A stretch of 58,527 nt of DNA from Histomonas meleagridis 2922-C6/04-290x (GCA_020184695.1 JAANOX010000124.1:1-58527); one strand, 5' to 3'; counted from the stretch's first letter, positions 7,293 through 34,832 are shown. Numbers and translations: made by a program. The notes: generated by a model from the sequence alone, not told the origin.

Positions 7293-7340
7293 ATCACTTA
7301 CTTTTAATATGCTTGAGTAAACGACCCACATGGGACGAGA

Positions 7341-11398: not shown

Positions 11399-11686
11399 TT
11401 CATCCATTTTATTACTGAAACGTTCATATGCATCTTTATTTTCTGGTTCATTATCATTTAATGATGAATTCATTAGATTATTAATTTCCTCAGGAATATA
11501 TTCAGATCTTTTTCTGAATATTCTATATTTTTATCGATTGACATATAATCTTCTATAATTTCGATATTGTTCGTCATAAACTTCAAGCGGTGTTGAAGTA
11601 TTTCTATAATCAAAATTTTTCGGTAAAGTGTATCCGTATTTTTCAAATAAATTTCTAACTTCTTTTTTGCTCAATCTTTTTGGCAT
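11399..11686 (-). pseudogene. Hypothetical protein with one internal stop (MPKRLSKKEVRNLFEKYGYTL...)
   Basis: Manual translation of a frame starting at ATG 11686, directly after the resolvase-like gene. No family recognised. Confidence 0.35.
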
Positions 11687-11726
11687 TTTATCAAAAATAA
11701 AAAAATAATTTTTTTTAAAACTAAGT

Positions 11727-12340
11727 TTAATTTTTTTCTGAAATTAATTCTTTATACTGCTCTTTAGTAAGAAATATATGGTTATTTTGTAAAGCAAAAA
11801 TCATTCCTTGATTTATTGCATCAGCTATATCATCTTGCTTTTTATATTTTTCGAAATTATATGGCATCTGAAATGAACTCCAAGTACTAAAAAATTTTTC
11901 CTCAACATTTTTTAAAATGTTTCTTGCAATATTGACGCTCAATTTCTAATGAGCTTTATTTTCGGTGTATTATCTGAACCTAAATTTCGAATTTTTTTTT
12001 TTTTGGCTCAAATAAATGAACATTAGCTTTAGAGATTAGTGAAAGAGTAATGATACTATACATTGATTCCATGGCATTAGTATTTCCCGGGAATTTGTTC
12101 TTCAATTAATACTGTAAAGGTATATAACCTTTTGACTTCATAACATTTTTCTCAAAACTATTATATAAAAATACTGCCCAACCGAAATTTTTGATTTGAC
12201 TTACAATTTAGCCTATAATATATGCTGCATCAACAAAACTTTATTTATACGTGGATTCACCGTCTTCATTTGATAGTATTCTATCATTATTTCTCCATCA
12301 TTATTAATTATACCATAATAAATAATATCTATCGTCATGA
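11727..12340 (-). pseudogene. RuvC-like Holliday junction resolvase (poxvirus A22-like), degraded
   Basis: Motif order across frameshifts: VLIEEQIP, FEPKKK..YTENKAH*KLSVNIARNIL, KKQDDIADAINQGMIFAL. This matches the A22 pattern ERQ / P..K..Y..RKK.SV / K.DD.AD. The N-terminal catalytic Asp motif is not clearly seen. Confidence 0.62.
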
Positions 12341-12900
12341 TATATGACTAGTGAGAATATCATTAATACTTTTTACTTTTATATTACCATTATTATTTAA
12401 ACTTATTGTACATCCTCTTAGCGCTCGAAAACTTAATGTATCGGTTATAGCTTTAATCCTCCAAGTATTATCCTTATTATAATCATTTCTATAATGCATA
12501 TCTATATACTCACCAACTTCCATGAGTCCATCAGATTTAATTGTTGCTATTGCCGGAATTTTTATTGTAGAATTAGAACCTCCGCCAATATTGTTCGAAA
12601 TATTATATTATATTATATTAGTTAATAGTATTCGCCACCAAACTTGAATTAATAGCTAAATCATCATTAATTATTTCATGTATGATCTTTTAATGAAAAA
12701 TCATCGATAGAATAACCACTAATGGTATCAATAACGAGGTCGCTAATGGTAACATTATTATTATCCTGTAAAATTATAAAAAATTGTTTATATATGTTTA
12801 AAACTTTATTAATATAACCGAACATTTCAATTATATATGCATATTTTATAATATTCTCTCCGGTGAGTATATTATCAACTTTAATATTATCATCAATATA
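12335..12900 (-). pseudogene. Possible fibre-like virion protein, fragmented
   Basis: DGLMEVGEYIDMH motif, plus beta-rich N/D/I/T stretches (YIDDNIKVDNILTGENI, VTISDLVIDTISG) in neighbouring frames. Confidence 0.3.
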
Positions 12901-13131
12901 CTTTTAATTTTTGATACTACTGTCTAACGGTGATATTATAATATGATTTCTTCAGTGAGTTAAAACGAGACTTTTATATACACGGTGTATCTGTAATGTT
13001 CATATACCATTTGACATAGTATCAGATGTTTTTGAGTAATCACAATAAACAATACTGCTTATATTCATTAACGCTCTAACTATATTTTCTATTTTTTCGA
13101 GCTGTGAATTTGACATTTTTATGACTATATT

Positions 13132-13473
13132 TTAATTATCAGTATTAACCAACCAATGATATTTTGAATCTTTATACTTATTATGTTTGTTAACATATTC
13201 CATAGCACCTCCATATGTTTGTGCATCTCTAACTTTTCTAACATCTTTCTTTAAATCAATAATAAGATGTGCTAAAGCTTTCATATTCTCATCAATTAAT
13301 GTTCTATCAGATCCAGTATATTGATAATGACTTAAATCATCATCAAAAACATATTGAGCATCACCTGGTGTAATATATTTTTTTTGAGGTTCTGATTTGA
13401 CCCGTGATGGAAATAAACGTGAACCATCAGGTCCTCGTGGTCTACGATTTGCATATATCACATCTTGTTGCAT
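13132..13473 (-). CDS. Hypothetical protein of V1, directly after the ATPase
   Basis: 113-aa ORF with an ATG 31 nt after the ATPase stop. V2 has an unrelated ORF in this slot. Confidence 0.45.
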   Translation of the reverse strand: MQQDVIYANRRPRGPDGSRLFPSRVKSEPQKKYITPGDAQYVFDDDLSHYQYTGSDRTLIDENMKALAHLIIDLKKDVRKVRDAQTYGGAMEYVNKHNKYKDSKYHWLVNTDN

Positions 13474-13503
13474 TAAAAAAAATGATTTTAAAAAAAAAAT
13501 TTT

Positions 13504-14153
13504 TTATTCAATTTTTATATTTTGATTATTCACGTCGACGATCATTTTTTGATGACCAGTTAATTTTTGATAAACTGAATAAATTTGATATTTAGTATAA
13601 GGTAATGGTATTTGTTCAATCATATATCTTAATTGTTGTTTAGAGAAATTAGGAAATATAAATATAGTACTTACATTAGCTTTAACTTCAGCAGGTAAAG
13701 ATTTCCAAAATTGTACAGCGAAAAATACAGAACATTGAATATGAGCTAATTTAGTAAATAATTGATTAAAATAATTAGTAGGTTTTATAAATAAAGGACT
13801 ATTAGCACAATCTTCAAAAAATATTATAGTATGTAAAGTTAAATTATTAAAATTATTAATATATAATTTTTCAAATAATTCAGATATTTTATTATCTACT
13901 ATTTTAATTTTTATTAATATAAATTAATAAATGAGTTCTAGGACTAATATTACTAATTTTAATAATTTCTCTAATTATACATTGAGTTTTCCCACTTCTT
14001 TTTTCTACCTACTGCTATATTTAAAGAATTATAATGTACATTCACTTCTGGATGAATTTCACTTATTAATTCTTCATTTAATTTAGGTTTATTTTTATAT
14101 AAACAATAATCAATCATATTATCTATGACATCAATATTAATATCGTTTTCCAT
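13504..14153 (-). pseudogene. A32-like packaging ATPase (V1), frameshifted, with a ~170-bp internal deletion
   Basis: Homologous to 23831..24637. Walker A is frameshifted (GR..SGKTQ). Walker B TIIFFEDCANS and LAHIQCSVFFAVQFW are present. Confidence 0.8.
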
Positions 14154-14192
14154 AAAATAAAATAATTTTATAAAATCAATTCATTATTATTA

Positions 14193-14585
14193 ATGGAATC
14201 TCTTTATACGTGCTTCGCTCAAGAGTTTAAAGATTGTGATTTTACTGCTATAAATATTAAACCTTCGTTTTCTATCGTTAAAAATAAAAATGTAATAACA
14301 TTAACTGTAACAGTATATAATAAATATCATAATTTATTAAAAAAACAAATTTATAAATTTATAGATGAAAAATATCATCCTACTATTAAAAATCCTTTAC
14401 AAAATATAACACCTGAACAATTAGATCAAGCTTATCAAATATCTAAAATGGAATTATTAAATCAAATATTTAATAATGATTTTAACAATTATAATGGTTA
14501 TGTAAATAAATTGAATGTTTTACATTATGATAATGACTCAGTAATGCCTCAAAATCGAGATGAACAGCTCCAAAATGATTTATAA
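14193..14585 (+). CDS. Conserved hypothetical protein of the element (130 aa)
   Basis: Intact ORF with TCATT 12 nt upstream. A frameshifted copy lies at 23387..23781 (minus). Confidence 0.65.
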   Translation: MESLYTCFAQEFKDCDFTAINIKPSFSIVKNKNVITLTVTVYNKYHNLLKKQIYKFIDEKYHPTIKNPLQNITPEQLDQAYQISKMELLNQIFNNDFNNYNGYVNKLNVLHYDNDSVMPQNRDEQLQNDL

Positions 14586-15050
14586 ATAAAAATAATGATA
14601 TTGATATTTTCTAACGTTCGAAAACTGACACATTTGAATGAATAAATGTACAATGATTTTTTATGTAATTTTTATGGACAGGGGATCATTGTTAAAAAAA
14701 TGGATTGATTTTGATCGTATTTTCCCACTTTTAAATTAACGATAGATTCAATTTTTGCAGTCATGTACTAACTTAGGATATAAATTAATTTTCGAGATCA
14801 TGGAAAACGATCAGTAAACTATTTAAACAAAAAATATTTGATAGCACAGTCTTTATTCAGTTCAAAAAGTCATTGTGATCAAAACTCTCAGAAAACAACA
14901 TTATCGCTATTCAATTTTATGATCGTATATTTTTTAAGTCCTAACCGAAGTACTCAATATTTGAAAGGGTTTTAGTTTCAAAATAATAAAAAAATATATC
15001 AAAAAGTTTAATTGTATTGAAATATTTAGAATCGCCTCACATATAAAAAA

Positions 15051-15287
15051 ATGGAATATCCAGTTCAAAGCATCTCTGCGCCACGCATTAAAAATGGGGT
15101 GGTGTCTTTCCTGGTGCATTGGGGCACAGGAGAGTTCACTAGAGAACCCCTGGAATGCTTAGTACCGGGAAGTCTTGATCTTCTCTATGACTGGATCAAG
15201 ACTCATAGTCCGAATTTAAGACCGGAGATTGTTCATACGATGTATGAACAAATTGAGTCAATTTGTGCACTCAAGGAAATGGAGTAA
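15051..15287 (+). CDS. Stand-alone chromodomain-like protein (V1)
   Basis: EYPVQSISAPRIKNGVVSFLVHWGTGEFTREPLECL fits Y.V..I...R...G...(Y/F)LV.W.....TWEP..NL. Confidence 0.7.
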   Translation: MEYPVQSISAPRIKNGVVSFLVHWGTGEFTREPLECLVPGSLDLLYDWIKTHSPNLRPEIVHTMYEQIESICALKEME

Positions 15288-15353
15288 ATAAAAAAATACT
15301 TCTAATTTTTTTAATCTAAATAAAATTGAGATCTAATTTTAAATAATTTTTAT

Positions 15354-16446
15354 TTAATAACCATCAGGAGTACCATTAGGATAATATTACAATCCATTAT
15401 GTAAATCTAATGTGAAATAAGTATCACGACAAATGAATAATTGTGGAAGAGGTGGATGATTTCCAGTATCATCAACATTATAATAAGTATCATTAGCTAG
15501 TGTATAAATAGGTTGCCCCTTAATTTGTATCGGGATATTTTGTCCATTAGAATCTAAGCCATCAAATACGTAACCACCACGTGAGCGTTCACATTGTATA
15601 TTAAGCATAAAAGAAGTAGCATCACTTAATGTATTATTATATCTTGTACCATTTGAAGCATTTCTATCCATAGTTAAAGAATCTTCAAATTCTTTAGTAC
15701 ATTGTATACTATCATCTAAATCAGAAGCAACTAATTGATATTGTAAAAATCTTGCACCTAAAGTAGAAATAGGTTCATCAGGATAATTTTGACCTGCAAT
15801 AGTTAATTGTACATTATTATAAATAGGATTATCGAAACAAGTATAATCATTAGCATGTTTTGGAAATACAACTGTAATAGTTGTAACATTAAATAAAGGC
15901 ATATTAATAGTAGATTGAATACCAGATTCAGTAGCAGCTAATGCAAAAAGCATTATAATCTAATTGTTGTGAAGGAATTAATAAACCTCCAGGTTGTTGA
16001 AGTATTTGAGCTATTTTATTTAAAGTTTCTTCTTTAACTCCAAATCCAAACATATTAGATTTACATGAAACTACTGTTAAACCTGTATAATATAAAGAAA
16101 CATTCTCAGATACAGTATCAATAGTATGATTAGTTTCAGTATCACATTTAAATGTAGTAGTAATATTAGCAGAATTACCTATTTGAGTAAAACCATGAGT
16201 AAATAAAGGTATATTATTAAATGTAGCATTAATAGAAGAATCTTCTAAAAAAATTCTTTAACTTCTTTTAATTTTACGTGGATCTACTTGACACCAAACT
16301 AAACCATTTTGTTTAACATAAAACTTTAATTCAATATCACCGACTAATCTATTTGGATATAAATCGAATGCTTGTAAAGCTAATATATCTTCAAATGGAA
16401 GATTCATTTCAAATTCGATATCATGTTTATTTCCATCTGCAATTGT
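15354..16446 (-). pseudogene. Major capsid protein 3' half (V1), truncated at 16446
   Basis: Protein text is nearly identical to V3 MCP from TIADGNKH to HNGL. It has frameshifts and a premature stop. Confidence 0.8.
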
Positions 16447-16580
16447 TTTCAACATCAAATGCTTAACGGTTTTTTAGCGTTACTTTGAAAATGAATGGTT
16501 TATATTTTATATCTCTCACAGTAGGGCCACGTAAGATTATATTAAATTTCTTAAGTATTGAAATCACTTCACTGCAAACA

Positions 16581-17150
16581 ATGCAGGATTTGGCTAACTC
16601 GCATGGGCGCGAATCTAACACTAGCCTAGGCGCGCCCAGAGCTATGAGGAATTCTTTGAGGTATATGTCGGATACTTCGGAATCTGAGCTTGATAGTGAG
16701 TCTTCTTCTCAGTCTGAGTCTGAGGAACCTCCTAGACCCAAAAACTGGAAGTATGAGTTCCCTTATTATTTTGATGAGGGTAACGATGATTCTTCTAGTC
16801 AAGCATTCTCGCAAGAGATGAATGGGGACTATGAAGTTGAATCAATAGTACACTTCAAGGTGGAAAAAGACTCAGAAGGAGTCAACAATGCACTTTGGTG
16901 TGTTTGTTGGAAGAGGGTGAAGGGTCGATTAACACCCTTGAACGATTGGGAACCAACAAAACACCTTAGTTATTGTAAAAACGCGGTAGCCTTCTTTATA
17001 GCTATGCTCAAAGATGGCAGTTCTGAGGAGTATTATCCACCTTCTTCGCGTTTGGCTCCTGCACTGAGAGCCGCTGAAGCCGGTCACTTGTTATTGAGCG
17101 TCAGTTCCAGAGGTACTTTCATATCAATATGTCCTCTCTTCTGGGTATGA
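16581..17150 (+). CDS. Ser/acidic-rich protein with a chromodomain-like segment
   Basis: DYEVESIVHFKV...WCVCWKRVKG...DWEPTKHLSYC. The DNA is visibly more GC-rich than its flanks, and TCACT lies upstream of ATG 16581. Confidence 0.55.
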   Translation: MQDLANSHGRESNTSLGAPRAMRNSLRYMSDTSESELDSESSSQSESEEPPRPKNWKYEFPYYFDEGNDDSSSQAFSQEMNGDYEVESIVHFKVEKDSEGVNNALWCVCWKRVKGRLTPLNDWEPTKHLSYCKNAVAFFIAMLKDGSSEEYYPPSSRLAPALRAAEAGHLLLSVSSRGTFISICPLFWV

Positions 17151-17791
17151 GACAAAAGTATCTAGACATTCAGCGGAAAGAAGACGATTTGGTGTTCTAC
17201 CTGAAGGGCATTGATACTACTCCACGTAGTAAAAAAGCTGAACAACATGCCCTAAGGGTAGTCATCGAAAGACGCTGGAATAATCTAAGTCACGATTCTC
17301 GCGAAAATGTTTACTCGAGAATGGACGAACTAAGGTTCGAATGTCCAGTGGCACATAGATTCATCACCCAGCTCTACTCTCGCGAGCGTCAAATAGAAAG
17401 GTTTCCTGCAATTTTCCCTAAGCCACTTTATGATAGTGTTTATCTTAATAAGAATAACAACAAAGAAGAGGATAAATATCCTCCTAAGAAGGAGTACTTA
17501 GAGGACATTCATCCAGATACTGAGGAAATCTTTCTAAATGACCCCGTTTTAAAGCCGCTAGCCATAATGGCACCACGTCCCAGGGAGGACAATGAACTAG
17601 GTGTACCAAGAACCAGAGCTCCCGATGAGATCGTGTTTGCCAAGAGACACCCAAACCTAAAGGTGGTTGAGCCTTTACTGCGAAAATGCACAACAATGGA
17701 TAAATTCTATAATGATAAATTGGAATCGAATAGAAAATTATGCCTTCGTATATTACATTTAACCTATATCCAGATTATTCGTGCTCAATAA
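17129..17791 (+). CDS. Hypothetical protein, possibly the frameshifted continuation of 16581..17150
   Basis: 220-aa ORF overlapping the previous ORF end in the same GC-rich block. Confidence 0.45.
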   Translation: MSSLLGMRQKYLDIQRKEDDLVFYLKGIDTTPRSKKAEQHALRVVIERRWNNLSHDSRENVYSRMDELRFECPVAHRFITQLYSRERQIERFPAIFPKPLYDSVYLNKNNNKEEDKYPPKKEYLEDIHPDTEEIFLNDPVLKPLAIMAPRPREDNELGVPRTRAPDEIVFAKRHPNLKVVEPLLRKCTTMDKFYNDKLESNRKLCLRILHLTYIQIIRAQ

Positions 17792-18700
17792 TTTATTTTT
17801 CTCTTTCACCCCAGGGGAAAGCAACAAATATTCAATGTGAAACACTCGAAACATTCCGTAATAAATTAAAAAATTATTAAATATTTGTTCTTGGATTCGC
17901 CTTTGATGGTGATAATTTCTATGATTCTTATTATGATTCGTTCTTTGGTCAATATGAATGTGTTGCTGAGCATTACACAGCTTCAATTGTTGAAATTGCA
18001 AAAAGAGTTTTTTTTCGATATATTAGTGATCCCCTTCATATACTTAAACGTTCGAGATATCGTTTACTTATAGACGTACCAATTATCAACATTTTCAGAA
18101 TGCGGGAAGATTTAAATTTATTACCGATTTTAATTAATTACTATAAAATCACAAAAATGCACGATATTCTACCCATTTCTCTATTTTCTATTGATAAAAC
18201 AATTCATTAATGATATATGAGAAACATAATGTTTCAGCATTATTATATTTCTTACCATGGTCTTTATTTATAGAAGCAATATCCAATGACAATATAAATA
18301 TAAGCGAAAGAATTTCGCTATTCGAAATCAATTTTTATTTAATGTTTATATATTATGTATTTATTGTTGTAATACAATTCATTCATTTGTTACATTACTT
18401 ATCTTTTAAAAGATATGAATGCCAAAAAAAGCTTAAATAGATTTACGTCAAATCTTCTCGAACATCAATTCGGATGTATAAGAAATGAAAATGGGTATGT
18501 TCAAAATTCTAATATTAGCGTTAGATACAATATCAACTGATCTAATAATGAATTTATGTAATAACTCATTTGACTAAAAAATAAAAATGATATTCCCACA
18601 TTAGTGACAAGATGGAACTTGCTTTTTCCTTAATTGATTAAAAACTTTTACAATTACAACAATGCATTGAATACTTCATTTACGATGATATTATTCGATA
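17790..18700 (+). pseudogene. P-element/THAP9-like transposase relic
   Basis: Manual translation gives GKATNIQCETLETFRNKLKNY*IFVLGFAFDGD and DPLHILKRSRYRLL (D.xH..K..R motif). Confidence 0.5.
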
Positions 18701-18815
18701 GAATTCTATCAGATATAGATAGATCTGGACCGAAACTTTTAAAATGTATGGATATAATCATCATAAGAAAATATTGAATGCTGTGACTGATCATTTCTAA
18801 AATCATTTGAAATTT

Positions 18816-19093
18816 ATGGGAGCAAAGCGTGGAATTAAGAAAACAAATACAAGATTGACAGTAGAAACACCAAGAAGATCTAATGCAATTAATCAAAGAG
18901 CAAGAAGATGGGTATTCACTTGGAATAACCCAGACAGTTGAAGAGATACTTACAAACATTCTCAAGGGTAAGTTATTTGATAGCAGGCTTAGAGTTCGCG
19001 CCAAGCACTGGAACAAAACATATTCAAGGCTATATTAGGTTTGAAGAGAGAGTGTACGAAAGTACTTTAATATCGGGAATTAATTGTTATTGA
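18816..19093 (+). pseudogene. CRESS-DNA-virus-type Rep (HUH endonuclease) N-terminal fragment
   Basis: RCR motif I RWVFTWNNP (18909..18932). After a frameshift, YLIAGLEFAPSTGTKHIQGYIRF contains motif II HIQG (19019..19030). Motif III and the helicase are absent. Confidence 0.85.
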
Positions 19094-19107
19094 TAGGTAT
19101 ATAATGC

Positions 19108-19184
19108 GGTCGGGACTGATCACGAGGACCCTAGGGGGACTGCCTCCGGCAGTCCCCCTAGGGTCCTCGTGATCAGTCCCGACC
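19108..19184. repeat. Perfect 37-bp-stem hairpin (loop tcc) at the left end of V2
   Basis: ggtcgggactgatcacgaggaccctagggggactgcc-tcc-ggcagtccccctagggtcctcgtgatcagtcccgacc; arms checked base by base. Confidence 0.97.
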
Positions 19185-19594
19185 TTAAGTTTTCACTGGT
19201 AAAATTTCCGGGGTCTTCGGACCCCTCCGGTCGCCTCAGATTCCTCCAATTCCCCGAGTGTGCTCGCTCCGCACGCTACGAAAATCAAAATGATTTTTGT
19301 GAGCCATACAATTCGTCTGAAAATTTGAATGCACATTAAATTTTGAGAGAACGCGAAACTTTTTGATAGGAACGATAGCACTTTTAGCACCACTTTTCGC
19401 ATAAACCTATCAAAAACCTCACATAACCAACACGAATTGTCCCCGGTTATCTTTGGTCGGACATTTATCCTATTCAATTTATCTTTGCCAGGAGGTTAAT
19501 AGACAAAAAACGACGAATATTTTTTGAATACATGGCAAACTTTATTTTAAAATAGTAAATAACTGTTATAAATTATCACTTCATTTTTTTCTTC

Positions 19595-20068
19595 ATGTAT
19601 TGCGAATATTTTTTTTCCATTGCTCAAATTGCAGACAATATCAAAAAAAATAAGGATCTTGATGCTATTGATGTTGCAATATTCTTTGATCCTAAATATA
19701 ATAAAATGGGAAATTACAACAATTTTATTATCAATCCAATTGGGATGATAATAAAACATAGTAATTTATCCGATTTTTATTTTATTCAAGAAGAAATAAT
19801 AGAATTCTTTGACAATCCAATACTAATATCAATTCCAATTACTGAAAATAAGAAACCACCTATAAATCAAAATGTTCATTATTTAGAAATAGACTTATTT
19901 CCATTGAAATGTAAATTTGGACGATGGTATGCGTCATATATCTATGAGTCATATAATGATGAAATTAATCGTACATTATTAGATAATGTAATCGTTAATA
20001 GTCAACATAAAGACAAAACTCATCAATCTGCTTTTGATTTAAAGCAGGATCTTTTCAAGAGTGCCTAA
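19595..20068 (+). CDS. ORF-X, conserved hypothetical protein (157 aa), first gene of the element
   Basis: Intact in both V2 and V3 (31118..31591) with high similarity. Confidence 0.6.
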   Translation: MYCEYFFSIAQIADNIKKNKDLDAIDVAIFFDPKYNKMGNYNNFIINPIGMIIKHSNLSDFYFIQEEIIEFFDNPILISIPITENKKPPINQNVHYLEIDLFPLKCKFGRWYASYIYESYNDEINRTLLDNVIVNSQHKDKTHQSAFDLKQDLFKSA

Positions 20069-20469
20069 AAAATAAAAAAATGATTTTAATTTTTTTATTT
20101 ATTTTGATTCTATAAAAAAACTAGAAGGTGATGAATATATTCTACTATTTTTGTCTTTCAATTGGATAATTTGATAATTTTTTTCAAAATAAATTGAATT
20201 ACTAATAGTTAGTTTTTGGTAACTTTATATACTGGATAGATGGATCTATTAACTCAGTTTCTTTCTCTATCGTTGATGAATTTGATGTCTCATTGTCATA
20301 ATAAGTCTTGATCACCTTCGTGCTATCAGACATTAATAAAAAATGAAAATTTTATTAAATTATAATGAATTTTTGAAACTAAACTATGACAAATGGGACG
20401 CAGGCGTTCTTTAAGGACGCCTGGGATTTGGAATAGTTTCAAAACAATATATATATAAATAATATTTTA

Positions 20470-20739
20470 TTATTTCTTTTGTCCAACTAGCGCATTTGCT
20501 ACACCATCTATAACAGGTGAGAATTTATCTGCTATTTTAATTCCTTTTGCAATAGCACCTGCATGTCCAGGTAAATTTTCAATTCCAGGTATTTTACCTA
20601 CTGTATTTACAACAGGTTTAGCTACTTTATTCCATACATTACCAATAAATCTTCCAACTGGTTTAATAATTTTATCTCTAATCCAAGCACCAGCTTTTTT
20701 AAATCCATTTTTAATTTTGTTCCAAAAACCCCAAGCCAT
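20470..20739 (-). CDS. Amphipathic Trp/Lys-rich peptide paralog 1 (89 aa)
   Basis: MAWGFWNKIKNGFKKAGAWIRDKIIKPVGRFIGNVW...; intact in V2 and V3. Confidence 0.7.
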   Translation of the reverse strand: MAWGFWNKIKNGFKKAGAWIRDKIIKPVGRFIGNVWNKVAKPVVNTVGKIPGIENLPGHAGAIAKGIKIADKFSPVIDGVANALVGQKK

Positions 20740-20773
20740 GAATAATAATAAAAATAAATTATTAATTCTTTTT

Positions 20774-20980
20774 TTATTGATAAAATATAGGATGGATCTT
20801 GTCATTTGCTTCATTTCCTATATTTTTAAATAATGGAATTATTTTATCACCGGTTTCAAATATTTTATCCACAGGTAACTTTTTAAGAGGATTTATTTTT
20901 TTAATGTCTTCTTTATGTTGTTTAGCAAATTCATAACCTTTCACAATATGTGGACTAATTTTTTTAAATCCTTCTTTCAT
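20774..20980 (-). pseudogene. Amphipathic peptide paralog 2, 5'-deleted
   Basis: Matches the 3' part of V3 32299..32571. A ~350-bp deletion relative to V3 lies between two ttcattttt microhomologies. Confidence 0.65.
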
Positions 20981-20989
20981 TTTTTATTA

Positions 20990-22617
20990 ATGTATTATAA
21001 TAATACGCAATCTAAAAATGAACAAGATGATCAAGGTAATGTCGGAGCTTATTTTGATCGTCTTAAAGATTTAATTGCTAAAAATGATGGTACTCGTTCT
21101 TTTATTTTAAGAACTGAAGATTGTCATGATCAAAATGCACCTTTTAATCAATCACAAGAAACTAGATTAAGAATCACTCATGGTGATCATATGGTTTCAC
21201 AAATAACTGAAGGTTTTATTAATTTTAAAATTAGAATAACTGTACAATTATCAAAAGCTATTTCATCTAGTAATTTACAAGATCCTGAGAATTTAGCTAA
21301 AATATTTATAGGTTTTAAGAGTTCTAATCAATTATTAGATCAATTACAAATTATGTCTAATAATATTTCTACTGGTTATCAACAAAATGAATGTTGTCGT
21401 GAAGGTTATTGTTATTCTACAATTAAACCCTATGCTGAAAAGAAAACTAGAAAATATACACATTCTTTATATGAAAATGTTTCAGAATATTCTCAATCTG
21501 TTTGTGGTACTTATGTTGATTTAAATACAATTGCAGATGGAAATAAACATGATATCGAATTTGAAATGAATCTTCCATTTGAAGATATATTAGCTTTACA
21601 AGCATTTGATTTATATCCAAATAGATTAGTTGGTGATATTGAATTAAAGTTTTATGTTAAACAAAATGGTTTAGTTTGGTGTCAAGTAGATCCACGTAAA
21701 ATTAAAGAAGTTAAAGAATTTTTTTAGAAGATTCTTCTATTAATGCTACATTTAATAATTTACCTTTATTTACTCATGGTTTTACTCAAATAGGTAATTC
21801 TGCTAATATAACTACTACATTTAAATGTGATACTGAAACTAATCATACTATTGATACTGCATCTGAGAATGTTTCTTTATATTGTACAGGTTTAACAGTA
21901 GTTTCATGTAAATCTAATATGTTTGGATTTGGAGTTAAAGAAGAAACTTTAAATAAAATAGCTCAAATACTTCAACAACCTGGAGGTTTATTAATTCCTT
22001 CACAACAATTAGATTATAATGCATTTGCATTAGCTGCTACTGAATCTGGTATTCAATCTACTATTAATATGCCTTTATTCAATGTTACAACTATTACAGT
22101 TGTATTTCCAAAAAATGCTAATGATTTTACTTGTTTCGATAATCCTATTTATAATAATGTACAATTAACTATTGCAGGTCAAAATTATCCTGATGAACCT
22201 ATTTCTACTTTAGGTGCAAGATTTTTTTTTTTTTTTTTAATTGCTTCTGATTTAGATGGTGGCATACAATGTACTAAAGAATTCGAAGATTCTTTAACCA
22301 TGGAAAGAAATGCTTCTAATGGTACAAGATATGATAATACATCAAGTGATGCCACCTCTTTTATGCTTAATATACAATGTGAACGTTCGCATGGTGGTTA
22401 CGTATTCGACGGCTTAGACTCTAACGGTCAAAACATCCCGATACAAATTAAGGGGCAACCTATATATACTCAAGCTAACGATACTTATTATAATGTTGAT
22501 GATGCTGGAAATCATCCACCTCCCCCTCAATTATTCATTTGTCGTGATACTTATTTCACATTAGATTTACATAATGGATTGAAATATTATGCTAATGGTA
22601 CTCCTGATGGTTATTAA
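20990..22617 (+). pseudogene. Major capsid protein (V2), frameshift in a T-run at ~21720
   Basis: ORFs 20915..21727 and 21919..22617 are collinear with the V3 MCP. Confidence 0.8.
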
Positions 22618-22688
22618 ATAAAAAATTATTTAAAATTAGATCTCAATTTTATTTATATTAAAAAAAAATTAGAAGTATTTTTTATTAT

Positions 22689-22919
22689 TTACTCAATTTT
22701 CTTGAGTGCTTCTTCAATTTGTTCATACATCGTATGAACCATCTCCGATTTTATATTCGGACCATGAGTCTCGATCCAATCATAAAGAAGATCAAGACTT
22801 CCCGGTACTAAGCATTCCAGGGGTTCTCTAGTGAACTCTCCTGTGCCCCAATGCACCTGGAAAGACACCACCCCATTCTGAATGCGTGACGCAGAGATAC
22901 TTTGAACTGGATATTCCAT
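22689..22919 (-). CDS. Stand-alone chromodomain-like protein (V2, 76 aa)
   Basis: MEYPVQSISASRIQNGVVSFQVHWGTGEFTREPLECL; homolog of 15051..15287. Confidence 0.7.
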   Translation of the reverse strand: MEYPVQSISASRIQNGVVSFQVHWGTGEFTREPLECLVPGSLDLLYDWIETHGPNIKSEMVHTMYEQIEEALKKIE

Positions 22920-23386: not shown

Positions 23387-23781
23387 TTATGAAACATTTT
23401 GAGCTTGATCATTTTGATTTTGAGGCATTATTGAGTTAGCATAATTTTGTAAAACATTTAATTTATTTACATAAGCATTATATTTATTAAAATCATCATT
23501 AAATATTTGATTTAATAATTCCATTTTAGATATTTGATAAGCTTGATCTAATTGTTCAGGTGTTATATTTTGTAAAGGATTCTTTATAGTAGGATGATAT
23601 TTTTCATCTATAAATTTATAAATTTGTTTTTTTAATAAATTATGATATTTATTATACACAGTTACAGTTACTGTTATTACATTTTTATATTTTTAACAAT
23701 AGCAGACGAAGGTTTAATATTAATTGCACTAAAATCACAATCTTTAAATTCTTGTGCAAAGCATGTATAAAGAGCTTCCAT
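23387..23781 (-). pseudogene. Frameshifted copy of the 130-aa hypothetical protein
   Basis: Aligns to 14193..14585. Confidence 0.65.
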
Positions 23782-23830
23782 TAAAAAATAATGAAGTGAC
23801 AAAATGCTTTTTATAAAATTATTTTATTTT

Positions 23831-24637
23831 ATGGAAAACGATATTAATATTGATGCCTTAGATAATATGATTGATTATTGTTTATATAAAAATAAACCTA
23901 AATTAAATGAAGAATTAATAAGTGAAATTCATCCAGAAGTGAATGTACCTTATAATTCTTTAAATATAGCAGTAGGTAGACAAAGAAGTGGGAAAACTCA
24001 ATGTATAATTAGAGAAATTATTAAAATTAGTAATATTAGTCCTAGAACTCATTTATTAATTTATATTAATAAAAAAATGGATTAAAAAATGATCCCACTT
24101 TTGAATCATTAAAACCTTTAATTAAAATCCCAATTTTATATGTAGCTGAAAATCAAGCAGAAGATATAGTTAAAGATATATTAAAATGGAAACAATTTTA
24201 TAATGAAATTAAAAATAATCATTGGGAAAATAAAATAGTAGATAAGCAAATAAATGAATTATTTGAAAAATTATATATTAATAATTTTAATAATTTAACT
24301 TTACATATTATAATATTTTTTTATGATTTTGATAATAGTCCTTTATTTATAAAAAAACCTACTAATTATTTTTAATCAATTATTTACTAAATTAGCTCAT
24401 ATTCAATGTTCTGTATTTTTCGCTGTACAATTTTGGAAATCTTTACCTGCTGAAGTTAAAGCTAATGTAAGTACTATATTTATATTTCCTAATTTCTCTA
24501 AACAACAATTAAGTTATATGATAGCTCAAATACCATTGCCTTATACTAAAGATCGAATTTATTCAGTTTATCAAAAACTGACAGGACATCAAAAAATGAT
24601 CGTCGACGTGAATAATCAAAAAATAAAAATTGAATAA
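23831..24637 (+). pseudogene. A32-like (FtsK/HerA superfamily) genome-packaging ATPase (V2)
   Basis: Walker A AVGRQRSGKT (~23970-23998), a Walker-B-like IIFFYD, and LAHIQCSVFFAVQFWKSLPAEVKAN. Frameshift in an A-run at ~24075. Confidence 0.85.
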
Positions 24638-24668
24638 AAAATGATAAATTAAAATTCATTTTTTTTTA

Positions 24669-25269
24669 ATGTTAAAAGGCCAACAGGGTATAGATAATGA
24701 AATAGCTACTTATCTCAATGTGCTTGGGGTCGATATGACTGCTGCTAAAGAAAACTTAAAACAATGGAGAAATAATCAATCCAATAAAACTATAAATGAT
24801 CTTAATAATCAAATAAAAATATGGCGAACATTAAAAACAACCAATATAGATGAGAATACTTTATGGGACAATATATTGACGTATTTACAAAATATTCAAC
24901 ATCCGTTTTTTGACGAACTAGCTCCATTTCATCCAGAAGTTCTAAAGGATGATGCTTTGGAAGAAAACAGAATAAGAAGATCATTTTTCATCAATGCAAC
25001 CAACAGTAACTATCGAAGACATTAAACCAATTTTGTCTAACGAAATTCCACCATTGGGTTATGAAAAAATGGTTGGATATCCTTCAATTAATGAAGAAAT
25101 AATAATTGATCCAAGGAAATTATTTGGACATAAGTTATTATTTGATCCTCTAAAGAATATCATCGTTCTGAATACTATCAAATTCCATTTTTCAAAAATG
25201 ATACAAAAACAAAGCAAAATATGCTCAAATGAATCCAGAAATATTATGATAACATTAAAGAAACAATAG
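24669..25269 (+). pseudogene. Hypothetical protein, last recognisable gene of V2 (two overlapping ORFs)
   Basis: ORFs 24669..25025 and 24994..25269; TCATT 13 nt upstream of the ATG. Confidence 0.45.
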
Positions 25270-25954
25270 CAGTGATATCAGTTAACTTAATAAATCTAAA
25301 TAATTAAGTAGACACTTAAAAATACGAATGAAAAAATAAAAAAATAAATTAAGAAAAAATCACTTCAGATCATTTTTTTCACTTCACCAAAATTTCAATC
25401 ATTCATAACAATTTATGCAAAAAATATTTTTATTAAACAATCACATTTTTTTGAATAACAAATCATATATTTTTATTTATAAATATATAAAGATCACAGC
25501 CACCACATATAAAAAGTTGCACTAGATTTATTATCGACTAAGTCGATTTTTTCATATATTTTCACTTTTTCTCAAAATTTTTAATAAAAATGATAAAGGA
25601 TAATAGTTTAGAAAATAAGCACATCTAATATGCAACATTACTATATAGGAAATAATCCAAAATTCCATAAAAAGTATGGTCAAAATCAGATCGAAATTTC
25701 GAAACGAGGGTATTTTTGTAATCTCCTACCAATGCTATCCTTAACGTAAAATTATTGTTGAAAAAATATTGCAGGATTTTGAGTTTAGTACCTCTGGTAT
25801 ACCTTGTGAATTTTTTTCGCTTAATTAAGTCATGAATTTATATTATAAATATTATCAAAAACATAAGTAATATGTTTAATGTTCATTAAAAAAATCATGG
25901 TTTTCTTCAAAAATTACAGATCAATAAACGTATAAATAAATTTTATTAAAAAAA

Positions 25955-26444: not shown

Positions 26445-26492
26445 TTGATCAATAGTACGTTAATTTTCCTATCGTGTCAATTTTTTTTTTTC

Positions 26493-29747: not shown

Positions 29748-29826
29748 ACTTTTGTTTTGTTCTACATTTTATTTCTCGAGTTGTAACTATTACAAAATAA
29801 AATCAAAATTTTAGTGTAAATATATT

Positions 29827-30444: not shown

Positions 30445-30731
30445 CTGACATATCCCGTCAGAGCCCGTTAAAAAAACCAAAATAAACGGTTGAAAATATT
30501 CGACAATTAAAAATAGTATATTTTTGCATTAAAATTTTACTTCAAGAATAATGCATGGACATTACCACACATAAAGACATAAAATAATACATGCAAGCAC
30601 TTCAACGTATTATGAATGGAGCATCAAATCCATTTGCATCAAATGTACTAACAACGGAGGAATTAGAAAGAATTTGTACCTAAACATATCTAAACAATTT
30701 TGTTTCTGTCAGGGGTAAATATATAATGCGA

Positions 30732-30775
30732 TCGGGACAATCCCAGGGACCCTAGGGTCCCTGGGATTGTCCCGA
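30732..30775. repeat. Perfect 44-bp palindrome at the left end of V3
   Basis: tcgggacaatcccagggaccct|agggtccctgggattgtcccga. Confidence 0.97.
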
Positions 30776-31117
30776 CCTTAAGTTTTCACTCGGAAGATTG
30801 AAGGAATCTGTGGCCTCCGGAGGTGCCCATCTACCGAGTGTGCTCGCTCCGCTCGTTACATAAATCAAAATGATTTTTGTATACCCATACAATTCATTCA
30901 ATAAATTGAATACCAATTCAAAATTAAATGAACGCGAAACTTTTTGATAGAAACGATGGCACTTTAACACCACTTTTCACATAAACCTATCAAAAACCTC
31001 ACATAACCAACACGAATCGTCCTCGGTTATGTCTGGCCGGACATTAATCTCATTCAGTGGCAAATATAATTTTGAATAGTAAATAACTGTTATAAATTAT
31101 CACTTCATTTTTTCTTC

Positions 31118-31591
31118 ATGATTGCACATATTTATTCCTTTGCTCAAATTGCGGACAATATCAAAAATAAGGATCTTTCTGCTATTGATGTTGCAATATT
31201 CTTTGATCCTAAATATAATAAAATGCGAAATTACAACAATTTTATTATCAATCCAATTAAGATGATAATAAAACATAGTTATTCTACCGAATTTTATTTT
31301 ATTCAAAGAGAAATAATAGAATTCTTTGACAATCCAATACTAATATCAATTACAATTACTGAAAATAAGAAACCACCTATAAATCAAAATGTTCATTATT
31401 TAGAAATAGACTTATTTCCATTGAAATGTAAATTTGGACGATGGTATGCGTCATATATCTATGAGTCATATAATGATGAAATTAATCGGACATTACTAGA
31501 TAATGTAATCGTTAATAGTCAACATAAAGACAAAACTCATCAATCTGCTTTTGATTTAAAGCAGGATCATTTTCAAGAGTGTCTAAAATAA
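31118..31591 (+). CDS. ORF-X (V3 copy)
   Basis: Homolog of 19595..20068. Confidence 0.6.
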   Translation: MIAHIYSFAQIADNIKNKDLSAIDVAIFFDPKYNKMRNYNNFIINPIKMIIKHSYSTEFYFIQREIIEFFDNPILISITITENKKPPINQNVHYLEIDLFPLKCKFGRWYASYIYESYNDEINRTLLDNVIVNSQHKDKTHQSAFDLKQDHFQECLK

Positions 31592-31609
31592 AAATGATTT
31601 TAATTTTTT

Positions 31610-31843
31610 TTATTTATTTTGATTCCATAAAAAACTAGAAAATGATGAATATATTCTACTATTTTGTCTTTCAATTGGATAATTTGTTAATTTTTCAAAA
31701 TAAATTGAATTACTAATAGTTAGTTTTGGTAACTTTATATACTGGATAGATGGATCTATTAACTCAGATTCTTCTTCTATCGTTGTTGAATTTGATGTCT
31801 CATTGTCATAATAAGTCTTGATCACCTTCGTGCTATCAGACAT
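31610..31843 (-). CDS. Small hypothetical protein (MSDSTKVIKTYYDNET...)
   Basis: TCATT 12 nt upstream; a frameshifted copy lies in V2 (~20085..20333). Confidence 0.45.
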   Translation of the reverse strand: MSDSTKVIKTYYDNETSNSTTIEEESELIDPSIQYIKLPKLTISNSIYFEKLTNYPIERQNSRIYSSFSSFLWNQNK

Positions 31844-31910
31844 TAATAAAAATGAAAATTTTATTAAAATATAATGAATTTTTGAAACTAAACTATGACA
31901 AATGGGACGT

Positions 31911-31931
31911 AGGCGTCCTTTAAGGACGCCT
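31911..31931. promoter_or_regulatory. GC-rich internal palindrome aggcgtcctt-t-aaggacgcct (V2 copy 20401..20423)
   Basis: 10-bp perfect arms in an AT-rich intergenic gap; conserved in V2 with one mismatch. Function unknown. Confidence 0.4.
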
Positions 31932-31993
31932 GGGATTTGACATAGTTTAGTTTCAAAAATTCAAAACAATATATATATATAAATAATATTTTA

Positions 31994-32263
31994 TTATTTC
32001 TTTTGACCAACTAGTGCATTTGCTACACCATCTATAACAGGTGAGAATTTATCTGCTATTTTAATTCCTTTCGCAATAGCACCTGCATGACCAGGTAAAT
32101 TTTCAATTCCAGGTATTTTACCTACTGTATTTACAACAGGTTTAGCTACTTTATTCCGAACATTACCTATGAATCTTCCAACTGGTTTAATAATTTTATC
32201 TCTGATCCAAGCACCAGCTTTTTTAAATCCATTTTTAATTTTGTTCCAAAAACCCCAAGCCAT
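31994..32263 (-). CDS. Amphipathic peptide paralog 1 (V3)
   Basis: MAWGFWNKIKNGFKKAGAWIRDKII... Confidence 0.7.
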   Translation of the reverse strand: MAWGFWNKIKNGFKKAGAWIRDKIIKPVGRFIGNVRNKVAKPVVNTVGKIPGIENLPGHAGAIAKGIKIADKFSPVIDGVANALVGQKK

Positions 32264-32298
32264 AAATAATAATAAAAATAAATTATTAATTCTTTTTT

Positions 32299-32571
32299 TT
32301 ATTGATAAAATATAGGATGGATCTTGTCATTTGCTTCATTTCCTATATTTTTAAATAATGGAATTATTTTATCACCGGTTGCAAATATTTTATCCACAGG
32401 TAACTTTTTAAGAGGTTTTATTTTTTTTATGTCTTCTTTATGTTGTTTAGCAAATTCATAACCTTTCACAATATGTGGACTAATTTTTTTAAATCCTTCT
32501 TTCATTTTTTTAAGTAAAGATCCTATTTTCTTTATACCGTTTTTAAATTTGTTCCACAAACCCCACGCCAT
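32299..32571 (-). CDS. Amphipathic peptide paralog 2 (90 aa)
   Basis: MAWGLWNKFKNGIKKIGSLLKKMKEGFKKIS...; same 5' leader as paralog 1. Confidence 0.68.
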   Translation of the reverse strand: MAWGLWNKFKNGIKKIGSLLKKMKEGFKKISPHIVKGYEFAKQHKEDIKKIKPLKKLPVDKIFATGDKIIPLFKNIGNEANDKIHPIFYQ

Positions 32572-32699
32572 AAATAATAATAAAAATAAATTCATTGTTT
32601 TATTAAATTCTGTAATATTAACTTATTCCTAACTTTTTCTTTTACATCTTTAAATATTATTTTATCATTAGGTTTATATGGTAGAATTCTATTTTTCTT

Positions 32700-32827
32700 A
32701 CCTACATTCCTTTCATGTTCTAACAATTTTTTTCACATTTTTTTGTTGAATTTTTTTCTTGTTGTTCTTTACTTAACTGAAATTTGCTCAAACCTTTTTT
32801 AATTTTATTTCAAAAACCCCAACCCAT
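32700..32827 (-). pseudogene. Amphipathic peptide paralog 3, disrupted
   Basis: Manual reading from ATG 32827 gives MGWGF, a disruption at the conserved Trp, then NKIKKGLSKF. Confidence 0.5.
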
Positions 32828-32862
32828 TTAAAAATTATGAAAAATATTTTTCATTTTTATTA

Positions 32863-34554
32863 ATGTATTATAATAATACGCAATCTATAAATGAACAAGA
32901 TGATCAAGGTAATGTGGGAGCTTATTTTGATCGTCTTAAAGATTTAATTGCTAAAAATGATGGTACTCGTTCTTTTATTTTAAGAACTGAAGATTGTCAT
33001 GATCAAAATGCTTATTTTAATCAATCTCAAGAAACTAGATTAAGAATTACTCATGGTGATCATATGGTTTCACAAATAACTGAAGGTTTTATTAATTTTA
33101 AAATTAGAATAACTGTACAATTATCAAAAGCTATTTCATCTAGTAATTTACAAGATCCTGAGAATTTAGCTAAAATATTTATAGGTTTTAAGAGTTCTAA
33201 TCAATTATTAGATCAATTACAAATTATGTCTAATAATATTTCTACTGGGTATCAACAAAATGAATGTTGTCGTGAAGGTTATTGTTATTCAACAATTAAA
33301 CCCTATGCTGAAAAGATAACTAGAAAATATACACATTCTTTATATGAAAATGTTTCAGAATATTATCAATCTGTTTGTGGTACTTATGTTGATTTAAATA
33401 CAATTGCAGATGGAAATAAACATGATATCGAATTTGAAATGAATCTTCCATTTGAAGATATATTAGCTTTACAAGCATTCGATTTATATCCAAATAGATT
33501 AGTCGGTGATATTGAATTAAAGTTTTATGTTAAACAAAATGGTTTAGTTTGGTGTCAAGTAGATCCACGTAAAATTAAAGAAGTTAAAGAATTTTTAGAA
33601 GATTCTTCTATTAATGCTACATTTAATAATATACCTTTATTTACTCATGGTTTTACTCAAATAGGTAATTCTGCTAATATTACTACTACATTTAAATGTG
33701 ATACTGAAACTAATCATACTATTGATACTGTATCTGAGAATGTTTCTTTATATTATACAGGTTTAACAGTAGTTTCATGTAAATCTAATATGTTTGGATT
33801 TGGAGTTAAAGAAGAAACTTTAAATAAAATAGCTCAAATACTTCAACAACCTGGAGGTTTATTAATTCCTTCACAACAATTAGATTATAATGCTTTTGCT
33901 TTAGCTGCTACTGAATCTGGTATTCAATCTACTATTAATATGCCTTTATTTAATGTTACAACTATTACAGTTGTATTTCCAAAACATGCTAATGATTATA
34001 CTTGTTTCGATAATCCTATTTATAATAATGTACAATTAACTATTGCAGGTCAAAATTATCCTGATGAACCTATTTCTACTTTAGGTGCAAGATTTTTACA
34101 ATATCAATTAGTTGCTTCTGATTTAGATGATAGTATACAATGTACTAAAGAATTTGAAGATTCTTTAACTATGGATAGAAATGCTTCAAATGGTACAAGA
34201 TATAATAATACATTAAGTGATGCTACTTCTTTTATGCTTAATATACAATGTGAACGCTCACGTGGTGGTTACGTATTTGATGGCTTAGATTCTAATGGAC
34301 AAAATATCCCGATACAAATTAAGGGGCAACCTATTTATACACTAGCTAATGATACTTATTATAATGTTGATGATACTGGAAATCATCCACCTCTTCCACA
34401 ATTATTCATTTGTCGTGATACTTATTTCACATTAGATTTACACAACGGATTGAAATATTATGCTAATGGAACATTAGATGGATATCAAATAAAAAGTAAT
34501 TATTTAAAAAAATCATCATATTATCATAAATTAAATAAACGTGAAATGATTTAA
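32863..34554 (+). CDS. Putative double-jelly-roll major capsid protein (V3), intact; stop read through by TAA>CAA
   Basis: 563-aa beta-strand-rich protein, the largest ORF of a module that also has an A32-like ATPase. From memory it resembles capsid proteins of metamonad Polinton-like elements. The V1/V2 copies end at GTPDGY*. Fold not verified. Confidence 0.75.
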   Translation: MYYNNTQSINEQDDQGNVGAYFDRLKDLIAKNDGTRSFILRTEDCHDQNAYFNQSQETRLRITHGDHMVSQITEGFINFKIRITVQLSKAISSSNLQDPENLAKIFIGFKSSNQLLDQLQIMSNNISTGYQQNECCREGYCYSTIKPYAEKITRKYTHSLYENVSEYYQSVCGTYVDLNTIADGNKHDIEFEMNLPFEDILALQAFDLYPNRLVGDIELKFYVKQNGLVWCQVDPRKIKEVKEFLEDSSINATFNNIPLFTHGFTQIGNSANITTTFKCDTETNHTIDTVSENVSLYYTGLTVVSCKSNMFGFGVKEETLNKIAQILQQPGGLLIPSQQLDYNAFALAATESGIQSTINMPLFNVTTITVVFPKHANDYTCFDNPIYNNVQLTIAGQNYPDEPISTLGARFLQYQLVASDLDDSIQCTKEFEDSLTMDRNASNGTRYNNTLSDATSFMLNIQCERSRGGYVFDGLDSNGQNIPIQIKGQPIYTLANDTYYNVDDTGNHPPLPQLFICRDTYFTLDLHNGLKYYANGTLDGYQIKSNYLKKSSYYHKLNKREMI

Positions 34555-34631
34555 AAAACATCATAATAGCTTTAATCAAAACATTATATTTGTATAGTTT
34601 ATAATGATGTACACTGAATTCATTTGTTCAA

Positions 34632-34832
34632 ATGGAAAGAGAGTACCCTGTCTCATTCATTCTCGACCACTATTTCCGCATGGAAGGTACATACGAAGTC
34701 CTTTACTTCGTATTGCTATGGGAAGATGGATCAATCACAGCCGAGCCAAAAGAATGTCTGAACAATTGTGATGATCTTCTAAACATTTATATTAAACAAA
34801 CTAATCAGACTCAACAAATGGGAACAGGTTGA
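34632..34832 (+). CDS. Stand-alone chromodomain-like protein, second type (66 aa)
   Basis: EYPVSFILDHYF...YFVLLWEDGSITAEPKECLNNCDDLLNIY; TCATT 12 nt upstream. Confidence 0.65.
   Translation: MEREYPVSFILDHYFRMEGTYEVLYFVLLWEDGSITAEPKECLNNCDDLLNIYIKQTNQTQQMGTG

Follow-up and report, generated by a model that had tools for sequence, protein, structure and literature searches.

Truncated copies of a multicopy Polinton-like virus in a Histomonas meleagridis contig, with subterminal palindromes, a broken A22-type resolvase gene and the start of a compact polymerase-like gene

The described systems closest to the element considered here are the Maverick-Polintons and Polinton-like viruses (PLVs) of Metamonada (Bellas et al. 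2023, PMC10120064). The element is present as three partial copies, V1, V2 and V3, in a 58,527-nucleotide (nt) stretch of DNA from Histomonas meleagridis 2922-C6/04-290x (GCA_020184695.1 JAANOX010000124.1:1-58527), the whole of which is referred to as the window. With the Metamonada group, as the available part of that account presents it, the family shares a divergent double-jelly-roll (DJR) capsid in parabasalid and Preaxostyla hosts, high copy number, an ATPase, and genes for a family B DNA polymerase of the protein-primed type (pPolB) or an rve integrase in relatives; it differs in that neither the window capsid nor any of 62 homologs scanned has a Pfam match to DUF4106 (the T. vaginalis capsid), in that KilA was not seen in the window element, and in that the same part of the account makes no mention of a resolvase. 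Our data make it quite probable that V1–V3 represent, in truncated and frameshifted form, a multicopy endogenous PLV with a predicted DJR capsid and a likely parabasalid host; the intact virus likely uses a compact pPolB of its own and an rve-type integrase. The virus is classed as Polinton-like and not as a strict Polinton because no adenain/Ulp1 maturation protease was found: the preliminary description of this DNA saw no adenain gene in any copy, and there is no such Pfam match among 38 window open reading frames (ORFs), nor among 30 ORFs of relatives. VLTF likewise has no Pfam match among the window ORFs and the ORFs of relatives scanned.

Other systems offer precedents for the separate parts. 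The pPolB of mavirus comprises a terminal-protein region, a vOTU protease and a palm, and its loss of the exonuclease was accompanied by the gain of a helicase (Krupovic et al. 2024, PMC11161782, in the available part). The same domain order, again with the exonuclease lost, is predicted for P0303, a metagenomic homolog of the polymerase-like gene in V1, whereas the window capsid is not that of a virophage by sequence, motif C of P0303 is altered, and no helicase is linked to the gene in the window. PLVs and virophages of Halocafeteria seosinensis have terminal palindromes, for which a hairpin-priming model has been proposed (bioRxiv 10.64898/2026.07.28.741278); there, however, the palindromes mostly accompany replication genes other than pPolB, and 'resolvase' is absent from the main text, whereas here they occur with pPolB and A22. 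OmPLV of Oxyrrhis marina (PMC12721341) is an endogenous PLV with both a Holliday junction resolvase and a pPolB, but its pPolB is full, bears the exonuclease and is fused to an SF1 helicase, it has a tyrosine recombinase and a dinoflagellate host, and neither 'palindrome' nor 'hairpin' appears in the main text. The A22-family resolvase is shared with poxviruses and with egoviruses (10.1101/2024.03.23.586382, in the available part), the latter being linked to Parabasalia, having resolvase genes in common with Parabasalia and/or Trichostomatia genomes, and having donated KilA to parabasalid polintons; egoviruses differ in genome size (160-360 kb) and in having RNA polymerase and a family B polymerase of their own. 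Mriyaviruses, finally, are small DJR viruses with an ATPase and RuvC, but are defined in the available part of PMC11253617 by an HUH endonuclease, VLTF2/3 and no DNA polymerase, whereas here pPolB is present and the Rep gene is a single-copy neighbour. Each ingredient has a precedent; what is new to the literature searched is their combination, a compact pPolB together with A22 and hairpins. No paper on the family, or on a compact pPolB with A22 and palindromes, was found in a search outside supplements and most subscription papers; the supplement of PMC10120064 may list the family, and it and those of the two preprints may bear on novelty.

The three related partial copies of the preliminary description are upheld, being 88-97% identical where they overlap (self-comparison of the window), but the gene set that it ascribed to all of them is not common to them (Table 1). 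In V1 the capsid gene, cut at 16458, is followed by a chromodomain-like ORF, a 130-amino-acid (aa) ORF and the ATPase, then by part of gene C3, a fragment resembling a fibre gene and A22, to an end at ~11411; V1 has neither the amphipathic peptide genes nor a hairpin. V2 runs from its hairpin through ORF-X, peptides, capsid, chromodomain-like ORF and 130-aa ORF to the ATPase and position 24671, where homology with V1 ends. V3 extends from hairpin to capsid and lacks the ATPase, leaving the capsid as the only gene found in every copy. Both ATPase genes and two of the three capsid genes are broken. We infer that all three are dead remnants, cut by deletions and by the insertion of other repeats. 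The capsid family is multicopy in the host: in contigs from host sequencing the element reaches a summed depth of ~9,000-300,000 against ~500 for single-copy DNA, a sum that is a sign of a multicopy family and not a copy number.

Table 1. Features of the three copies and of the sequence beside them; coordinates are those of the window
Copy	Feature	Coordinates	Strand	Basis or remark
V1	Whole copy	~11411-16458	minus	Self-comparison
V1	5' stub of compact pPolB-like gene, 98 codons, one internal stop	11393..11686	-	V1 cut off inside gene
V1	Broken A22/RuvC-type Holliday junction resolvase gene	11727..12215	-	5' limit read by eye from self-comparison
V1	Fragment resembling fibre protein	12338..12607	-	PHROGs tail fibre E 0.0078; weak
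V1	N-terminal piece of conserved gene C3	13132..13473	-	Relatives' C3 profile E 1.5e-6
V1	A32-like packaging ATPase, three frames	13504..14165	-	54-81% to L015 ATPase; Pox_A32 E 0.022
V1	130-aa conserved ORF	14193..14585	+	41% to L013 ORF, E 5e-24
V1	Chromodomain-like ORF	15051..15287	+	34% to L036 ORF, E 1e-10; no Pfam match
V1	Major capsid gene, 3' two-thirds, 5'-truncated	15360..16458	-	Truncated by a different repeat at 16458
	Broken CRESS-type HUH Rep N-terminus	18816..19090	+	Motif I FTWNN, motif II HIQG, two frames; Viral_Rep E 3.5e-4
V2	Whole copy	~19098-24671	plus	Self-comparison
V2	Left end: 10-nt motif 19098-19107, then 77-nt palindrome 19108-19184	19098..19184		37-bp perfect arms, 3-nt loop
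V2	ORF-X (157 aa)	19595..20068	+	Relatives' C18 profile E 0.028-0.048; no Pfam match
V2	Short amphipathic, lysine-rich peptide genes (cluster C1)	20470..20980	-	ORF clustering
V2	Major capsid gene, one frameshift	20990..22617	+	68-79% to P0001 in two frames
V2	Chromodomain-like ORF	22689..22919	-	Chromo_2 E 0.085; homolog in L036
V2	130-aa ORF homolog, broken	23390..23787	-	Self-comparison and relatives
V2	A32-like ATPase, three frames, Walker A GRQRSGKT	23831..24637	+	58-66% to L015 ATPase
V3	Whole copy	~30720-34539	plus	Self-comparison
V3	Left end: 10-nt motif 30720-30729, 44-nt perfect palindrome 30732-30775	30720..30775		22-bp arms
V3	ORF-X	31118..31591	+	ORF call and self-comparison
V3	Amphipathic peptide genes (C1)	31994..32595	-	ORF clustering
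V3	Double-jelly-roll (predicted) major capsid gene, open frame	32863..34554	+	AlphaFold2 and Foldseek
	Chromodomain-like ORF after V3	34632..34832	+	38% over 53 aa to V1/V2 ORF; no blastn match

The window capsid has no Pfam match, and a search of PDB sequences with the capsid profile returned nothing below E 0.09. An AlphaFold2 model built on a 109-sequence alignment shows two beta-barrels at a predicted local distance difference test score (pLDDT) of 93.8 and a predicted template modelling score of 0.92; a shallow alignment of 25 sequences had reached a pLDDT of only 31. In Foldseek comparisons the model is best matched in the PDB by capsids of iridovirus, EhV, Sputnik, PBCV-1 and mavirus (E 2e-12 to 3e-10 for iridovirus, Sputnik, PBCV-1 and mavirus) and in BFVD by those of virophages, adintoviruses and large viruses. 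All of the top matches are DJR capsids; as far as a confident model can confirm it, the fold supposed at the outset is confirmed. Homologs of the capsid are numerous (of 7,878 candidates 516 reach E <= 0.001, with 72-77% identity for the best of them, and a library of 50% representatives yields 583), and its nearest Atlas clusters are hypothetical proteins of Preaxostyla and Parabasalia; cluster look-ups for 24 proteins gave a single name, 'hypothetical protein'. Scans of IMG/VR with the capsid, pPolB and ATPase found no relatives.

A metagenome scan yielded 43 loci with a capsid at 56-77% identity (L044 and L045 are excluded from every count over these loci), and these provide the frame of comparison for the remaining genes; the profiles for C13, C19, C2, C3, C18 and the ATPase were built from some of the loci scanned, and those loci match by construction. 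The A32-like ATPase of the preliminary description is upheld in V1 and V2: the Pox_A32 matches are weak and under the cut-off (E 0.015-0.022), the segments are 54-81% identical to relatives, and the gene is conserved in 7 of the 43 loci.

The resolvase gene of V1 is a broken copy, disrupted by frame breaks and one stop, but its identity, proposed from the first, is clear. A 72-aa piece matches Pox_A22 at E 4.9e-4, and the segments align with two intact metagenomic homologs, P0121 and P0123, at 72-73% (11730-11966) and 49-51% (11995-12105), these homologs themselves matching Pox_A22 above the cut-off at E 4e-12 to 4e-13. Intact A22 proteins number four altogether; they lie on short metagenomic contigs and share 68-74% identity with the piece in the window. 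Scanning IMG/VR with A22 returned two large-virus contigs at 26% identity. The question of whether A22 belongs to the element was addressed by aligning contigs from two host runs of one study to 11150-13750 in 87-nt bins. All 27 bins from 11411 to 13750 are multicopy (lowest ~5,000), whereas depth left of 11411 is 520-930, that of single-copy DNA; over the same interval the aligned contigs almost never continue into unlike sequence. Multicopy cover thus extends without a gap over the ATPase, A22 and the pPolB stub, placing A22 in the same multicopy repeat. Other host copies differ from V1 at the A22 frame breaks, which indicates that the damage is specific to V1. Depth peaks at the 5' end of the pPolB gene (500-670k against 17-160k over A22), and the pPolB gene may therefore be present in more copies than A22.

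A pPolB was said to be missing from every copy, yet V1 contains the first 98 codons of a pPolB-like gene, its frame starting 41 nt past the A22 stop on the same strand. When the first 51 residues of the stub were used as query both candidates returned were metagenomic proteins, P0302 and P0303, to residues 1-98 of which the stub is 61-62% identical. P0303 (761 aa) scores E 3.1e-11 and 35.3 bits against the pPolB profile (3.2 bits for the best of 201 shuffled or reversed controls), and hhalign aligns it in the vOTU and palm regions with the pPolBs of two of the related loci, L015 and L026, at a probability of 93.4. Its motifs include NESCL and DHYM, which supply the vOTU Cys/His, and YYIDQAGAYMS, KFMMNSCWG and YYSKVDS for palm motifs A-C. 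None of the three Exo patterns is present in P0303, whereas the L015 and L026 proteins carry all three, and P0303 seems to be cut short around the TPR regions. In the Atlas it lies nearest to clusters of Parabasalia hypothetical proteins of 697-750 aa, followed by DNA_pol_B_2 at 0.88, the latter a lead only. Taken together these features suggest that the stub is likely the start of a gene for the virus's own compact DNA polymerase.

Common to the window and its relatives are the peptides, C3, the ATPase and the 130-aa ORF, the order of which varies. In a simulation of aligning host contigs to relatives at a threshold of 80% likeness, about a quarter of the ATPase pieces passed and the 130-aa pieces all failed; pPolB is more divergent. 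Four of the 43 have pPolB sequence and five the rve-like gene C13, and one or both occur in all seven loci of at least 7 kb. Full pPolBs are found in L015 and L026 (DNA_pol_B_2 E 6.7e-40 and 8.9e-32); the match in L001, a 72-aa piece at the contig end, is independent of profile building. The C13 alignment of L026 has, in our reading, acidic residues at the three expected positions. L015 combines pPolB, C13 and a long left-end hairpin on one locus and has no A22 in its 16.8 kb. These observations, together with the V1 stub, contradict the view that the element depends on a host or helper polymerase; the presence of a pPolB, which the preliminary description itself named among the findings that would refute its proposal, is largely borne out. 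Its statement that no copy contains an rve integrase does hold, profiles built from relatives detecting no rve, penton-like or full-type pPolB gene across the window. The capsid family appears, from gene content, to use at least two replication modules, one with a full pPolB and one with a compact pPolB and A22. Elsewhere among the relatives, a DUF5906 P-loop (helicase-like) gene in L001 (6222-7631, +) precedes the pPolB piece at the contig end and is a candidate partner for the exonuclease-less pPolB. A deoxynucleotide monophosphate kinase gene lies in L005 (4541-5164, -; DNMK E 4e-12) and in seven other loci. Gene C2, in 36 of the 43 loci and absent from the window, is in our reading of its motifs a candidate single-jelly-roll penton (minor capsid protein).

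The palindromes at the left ends of V2 and V3 are far beyond chance, the longest arm in 20 block-shuffled windows being 9-11 bp. They are not, as had been described, the first bases of the copies: the 10 bases TATATAATGC lie outside them in both V2 and V3 and are no mirror of the sequence inside. An opened covalent hairpin end fits these shared non-mirror bases poorly, and with it the idea of a poxvirus-type hairpin telomere. The V2 loop reads C-GGA-G on the minus strand, and the V3 palindrome looks like that of V2 with the centre deleted between two CCCTAGGG repeats. Between V2 and V3 the arms differ by four substitutions and one indel, every one mirrored in the partner arm, and by one outer difference that is not; the mirrored changes point to self-templated copying or to selection.

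Hairpins of this kind are found in relatives also. A scan for 3-nt-loop hairpins over 258 kb (the 43 loci and the window) found six, four with a C-TNC-G loop (C-GNA-G on the other strand); five shuffles of the same sequence gave 0-1 hairpins each and none with that loop. Loops of the form C-GNA-G are unusually stable in single-stranded DNA. Two of the hairpins lie close to the left end of a relative, one in L019 and one in L015, that of L015 (28 of 31 pairs, C-TTC-G loop) being 290 nt ahead of the first element ORF. A perfect hairpin with 28-bp arms and a C-TTC-G loop also occurs in the window at 38270-38328, downstream of an ORF for an rve transposase of IS481-like look (38648-39316, -; Pfam rve E 8e-8). 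Since this transposase is unrelated, the motif is not unique to the capsid virus; the main text of the IS481EU paper (PMC10045372) does not mention hairpins. At the opposite end, the last 80 nt of L018 are GC-rich and form on the top strand a short stem-loop with C-GAA-G, inverse to the loops of the left ends. This suggests inverted element ends, but alignment to the left ends is not significant: the V2 left end shows no significant similarity to the L018 right end (31 of 300 shuffles as good), and for the L015 left end against the reverse of the L018 right end 1 of 300 shuffles was as good, which is marginal among eight comparisons. Two palindromes in L003 were dropped; the ORF beside them is insertion-sequence-like, and the stretch around them has, by eye, a bacterial look.

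How the intact virus might replicate can be sketched from its genes, the presence of which is observed. The compact polymerase – terminal-protein region, vOTU protease and palm, no exonuclease – would prime at the genome end via its terminal protein, and would probably need a helicase, as in mavirus. The displaced single strand could then fold at the subterminal palindrome, where the C-GNA-G loop is on the strand having its 3' end there; fold-back copying would keep the arms matched and may re-prime synthesis. A22 would act as an accessory resolvase, cutting branched or cruciform intermediates before packaging of the genome by the A32 ATPase into the DJR capsid, with rve-type integration into the host genome to follow. 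We infer each of these functions, the fold-back and A22 steps included, from sequence.

Several observations weigh against this account. Every copy in the window is incomplete and none has two ends; there is no terminal inverted repeat at the far ends of V1 or V2 when compared with the V2 left end. The integration step is borrowed from relatives, since no integrase was found in the window, and even there C13 reaches rve only at E 0.001, below the cut-off, in one of three C13 proteins scanned (L026). The polymerase assignment passes through a homolog, the window having only the N-terminal 98 aa, and P0303 itself has no polymerase match in Pfam, PHROGs or PDB, is ~25% identical to the full pPolBs of relatives, and reads SKVDS and not DTDS at motif C, from which a polymerase of this type may be inactive. 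No helicase was found in the window. Among the metagenomic relatives the compact pPolB is on no capsid contig and A22 in none of the 43 loci, and in the host the depth sums are not copy numbers and come from contigs too short to prove that ATPase and pPolB are linked on one molecule in other copies.

A rival reading, that of the preliminary description, is a polymerase-free, integrase-free small DJR virus or satellite, non-autonomous in its host; the pPolB stub and A22 would then belong to a separate nested element. The window has no integrase, penton or full-type pPolB, A22 is missing from the related loci, and the depth peak at the pPolB 5' end may mean that this sequence is common to other repeats. 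We regard this as very unlikely: multicopy cover is unbroken over the ATPase–A22–pPolB block, the metagenomic relatives are similarly distant for capsid (72-77%), ATPase (54-81%), A22 (68-74%) and pPolB stub (61-62%), all seven long relatives have pPolB or integrase, and each window copy is visibly truncated. Less probable still is a rolling-circle or rolling-hairpin virus resembling mriyaviruses, in which the HUH Rep beside V2 would be the initiator and the hairpin the origin. Mriyaviruses do have a DJR capsid, ATPase and RuvC beside HUH and lack a polymerase (PMC11253617, available part), and the Viral_Rep fragment ends ~20 nt left of the V2 palindrome. It is, however, on contigs of single-copy depth (433-524), in contrast to the multicopy element, and absent beside V3; there is no Rep cluster among ORFs of the 43 loci, where the Rep region of the window is unmatched; and the pPolB stub is present. 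Parabasalid assemblies contain hundreds of Rep-like insertions (PMC9615429, available part). The piece, overlooked in the preliminary description, is probably the site of V2 insertion and not a part of the capsid family; the rest of its gene was sought beyond the other end of V2 and not recovered. It is possibly a kirkovirus-type insertion.

A greater claim, if still an unlikely one, can be made for a hybrid in which the cut-down pPolB is kept while priming occurs mainly from the hairpin at the palindrome, and cruciform junctions of concatemers are cut by A22 in poxvirus-like fashion. The palindrome arms are perfect and co-vary, A22 stands in tandem with the pPolB gene, the polymerase is without exonuclease and apparently shortened around the TPR regions, and hairpin priming has already been put forward for palindrome-ended PLVs and virophages (bioRxiv 10.64898/2026.07.28.741278, available part). 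On the other hand, shared non-mirror bases lie outside the palindrome, the terminal-protein region and the vOTU Cys/His are retained, the hairpin also occurs in a relative whose 16.8 kb include a full pPolB and lack A22, and among 15 of 40 joints listed no opposite-strand joint occurs at the hairpin. An evolutionary extension of the idea would place this parabasalid lineage, small and still living, midway between polintons with protein priming and pox-like viruses with hairpin ends: the usual pPolB would have given way to a compact polymerase lacking the exonuclease, an A22 captured from an egovirus-like giant virus would have joined it, and replication would now proceed through fold-back of hairpins and resolution of cruciforms. 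This we offer as speculation with about as small a chance of being right. The reading of V1–V3 as remnants of a PLV that likely encodes its own compact pPolB is the one we prefer.

Among the remaining genes of the element, the amphipathic peptide cluster C1 is present in 42 of 44 clustered sequences (the 43 loci and the window) and C3 in 23 of the 43 loci. The V1 130-aa ORF is divergent from the ATPase, and the same arrangement is seen in L013, L015 and L018. ORF-X is a possible, distant homolog of the relatives' gene C18, the profile match being weak. Between ORF-X and the convergent peptide genes is an imperfect internal stem-loop, at 31875-31963 in V3 and 20380-20440 in V2. The ORFs that the preliminary description named a chromodomain gene are present, but the label is weak, with a Chromo_2 match at E 0.085 in one of three; the ORF by V3 is without DNA match to those of V1 and V2 and opposite to them in orientation, and its membership of V3 is uncertain.

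The window as a whole is AT-rich (19-40% GC per kb) and contains uninterrupted eukaryotic genes (Raptor, Rab, a haemolysin-III family protein and a Ca/H exchanger) along with several transposon remnants. Short TCA(Y)T motifs stand directly ahead of several start codons; these we take to resemble the parabasalid initiator element. Together with the nearest Atlas clusters of two element proteins, mostly from Parabasalia or Preaxostyla, such features point to a parabasalid host. The repeat that cuts the V1 capsid gene (16460-18630) is GC-richer, with a summed depth of ~7,000-20,000, two ORFs of ~220 aa, one of which looks chromodomain-like in part when inspected by eye, and a decayed frame of transposase-like character; in three runs, contigs join 18022 to 25646. 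A tyrosine recombinase ORF lies at 1247-2053 (-; Phage_integrase E 1e-16), and ORFs resembling those of non-LTR retroelements, present in several copies, at 3636-7886 (+) and 55948-58493; we presume that these three may represent a DIRS/Ngaro-like or RLE retroelement family. There are also a decayed MULE/SWIM transposase at 35770-37416 (+; Pfam E 0.019 and 0.077) and degenerate tandem arrays of 40-nt units at 8706-9067 and of 20-nt units at 39712-39932.

An endogenous virus that is apparently polymerase-free can hide a compact pPolB missed by Pfam, a point of relevance to the many viral elements of protists that have been reported to lack a detectable polymerase (PMC10120064, available part). 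With its 516 homologs the capsid family is spread widely among gut metagenomes, and its members seem to trade replication modules. If it is true that hairpin and A22 cooperate, then the family would provide a small test case for the move of protein-primed viruses to hairpin ends and resolvases.

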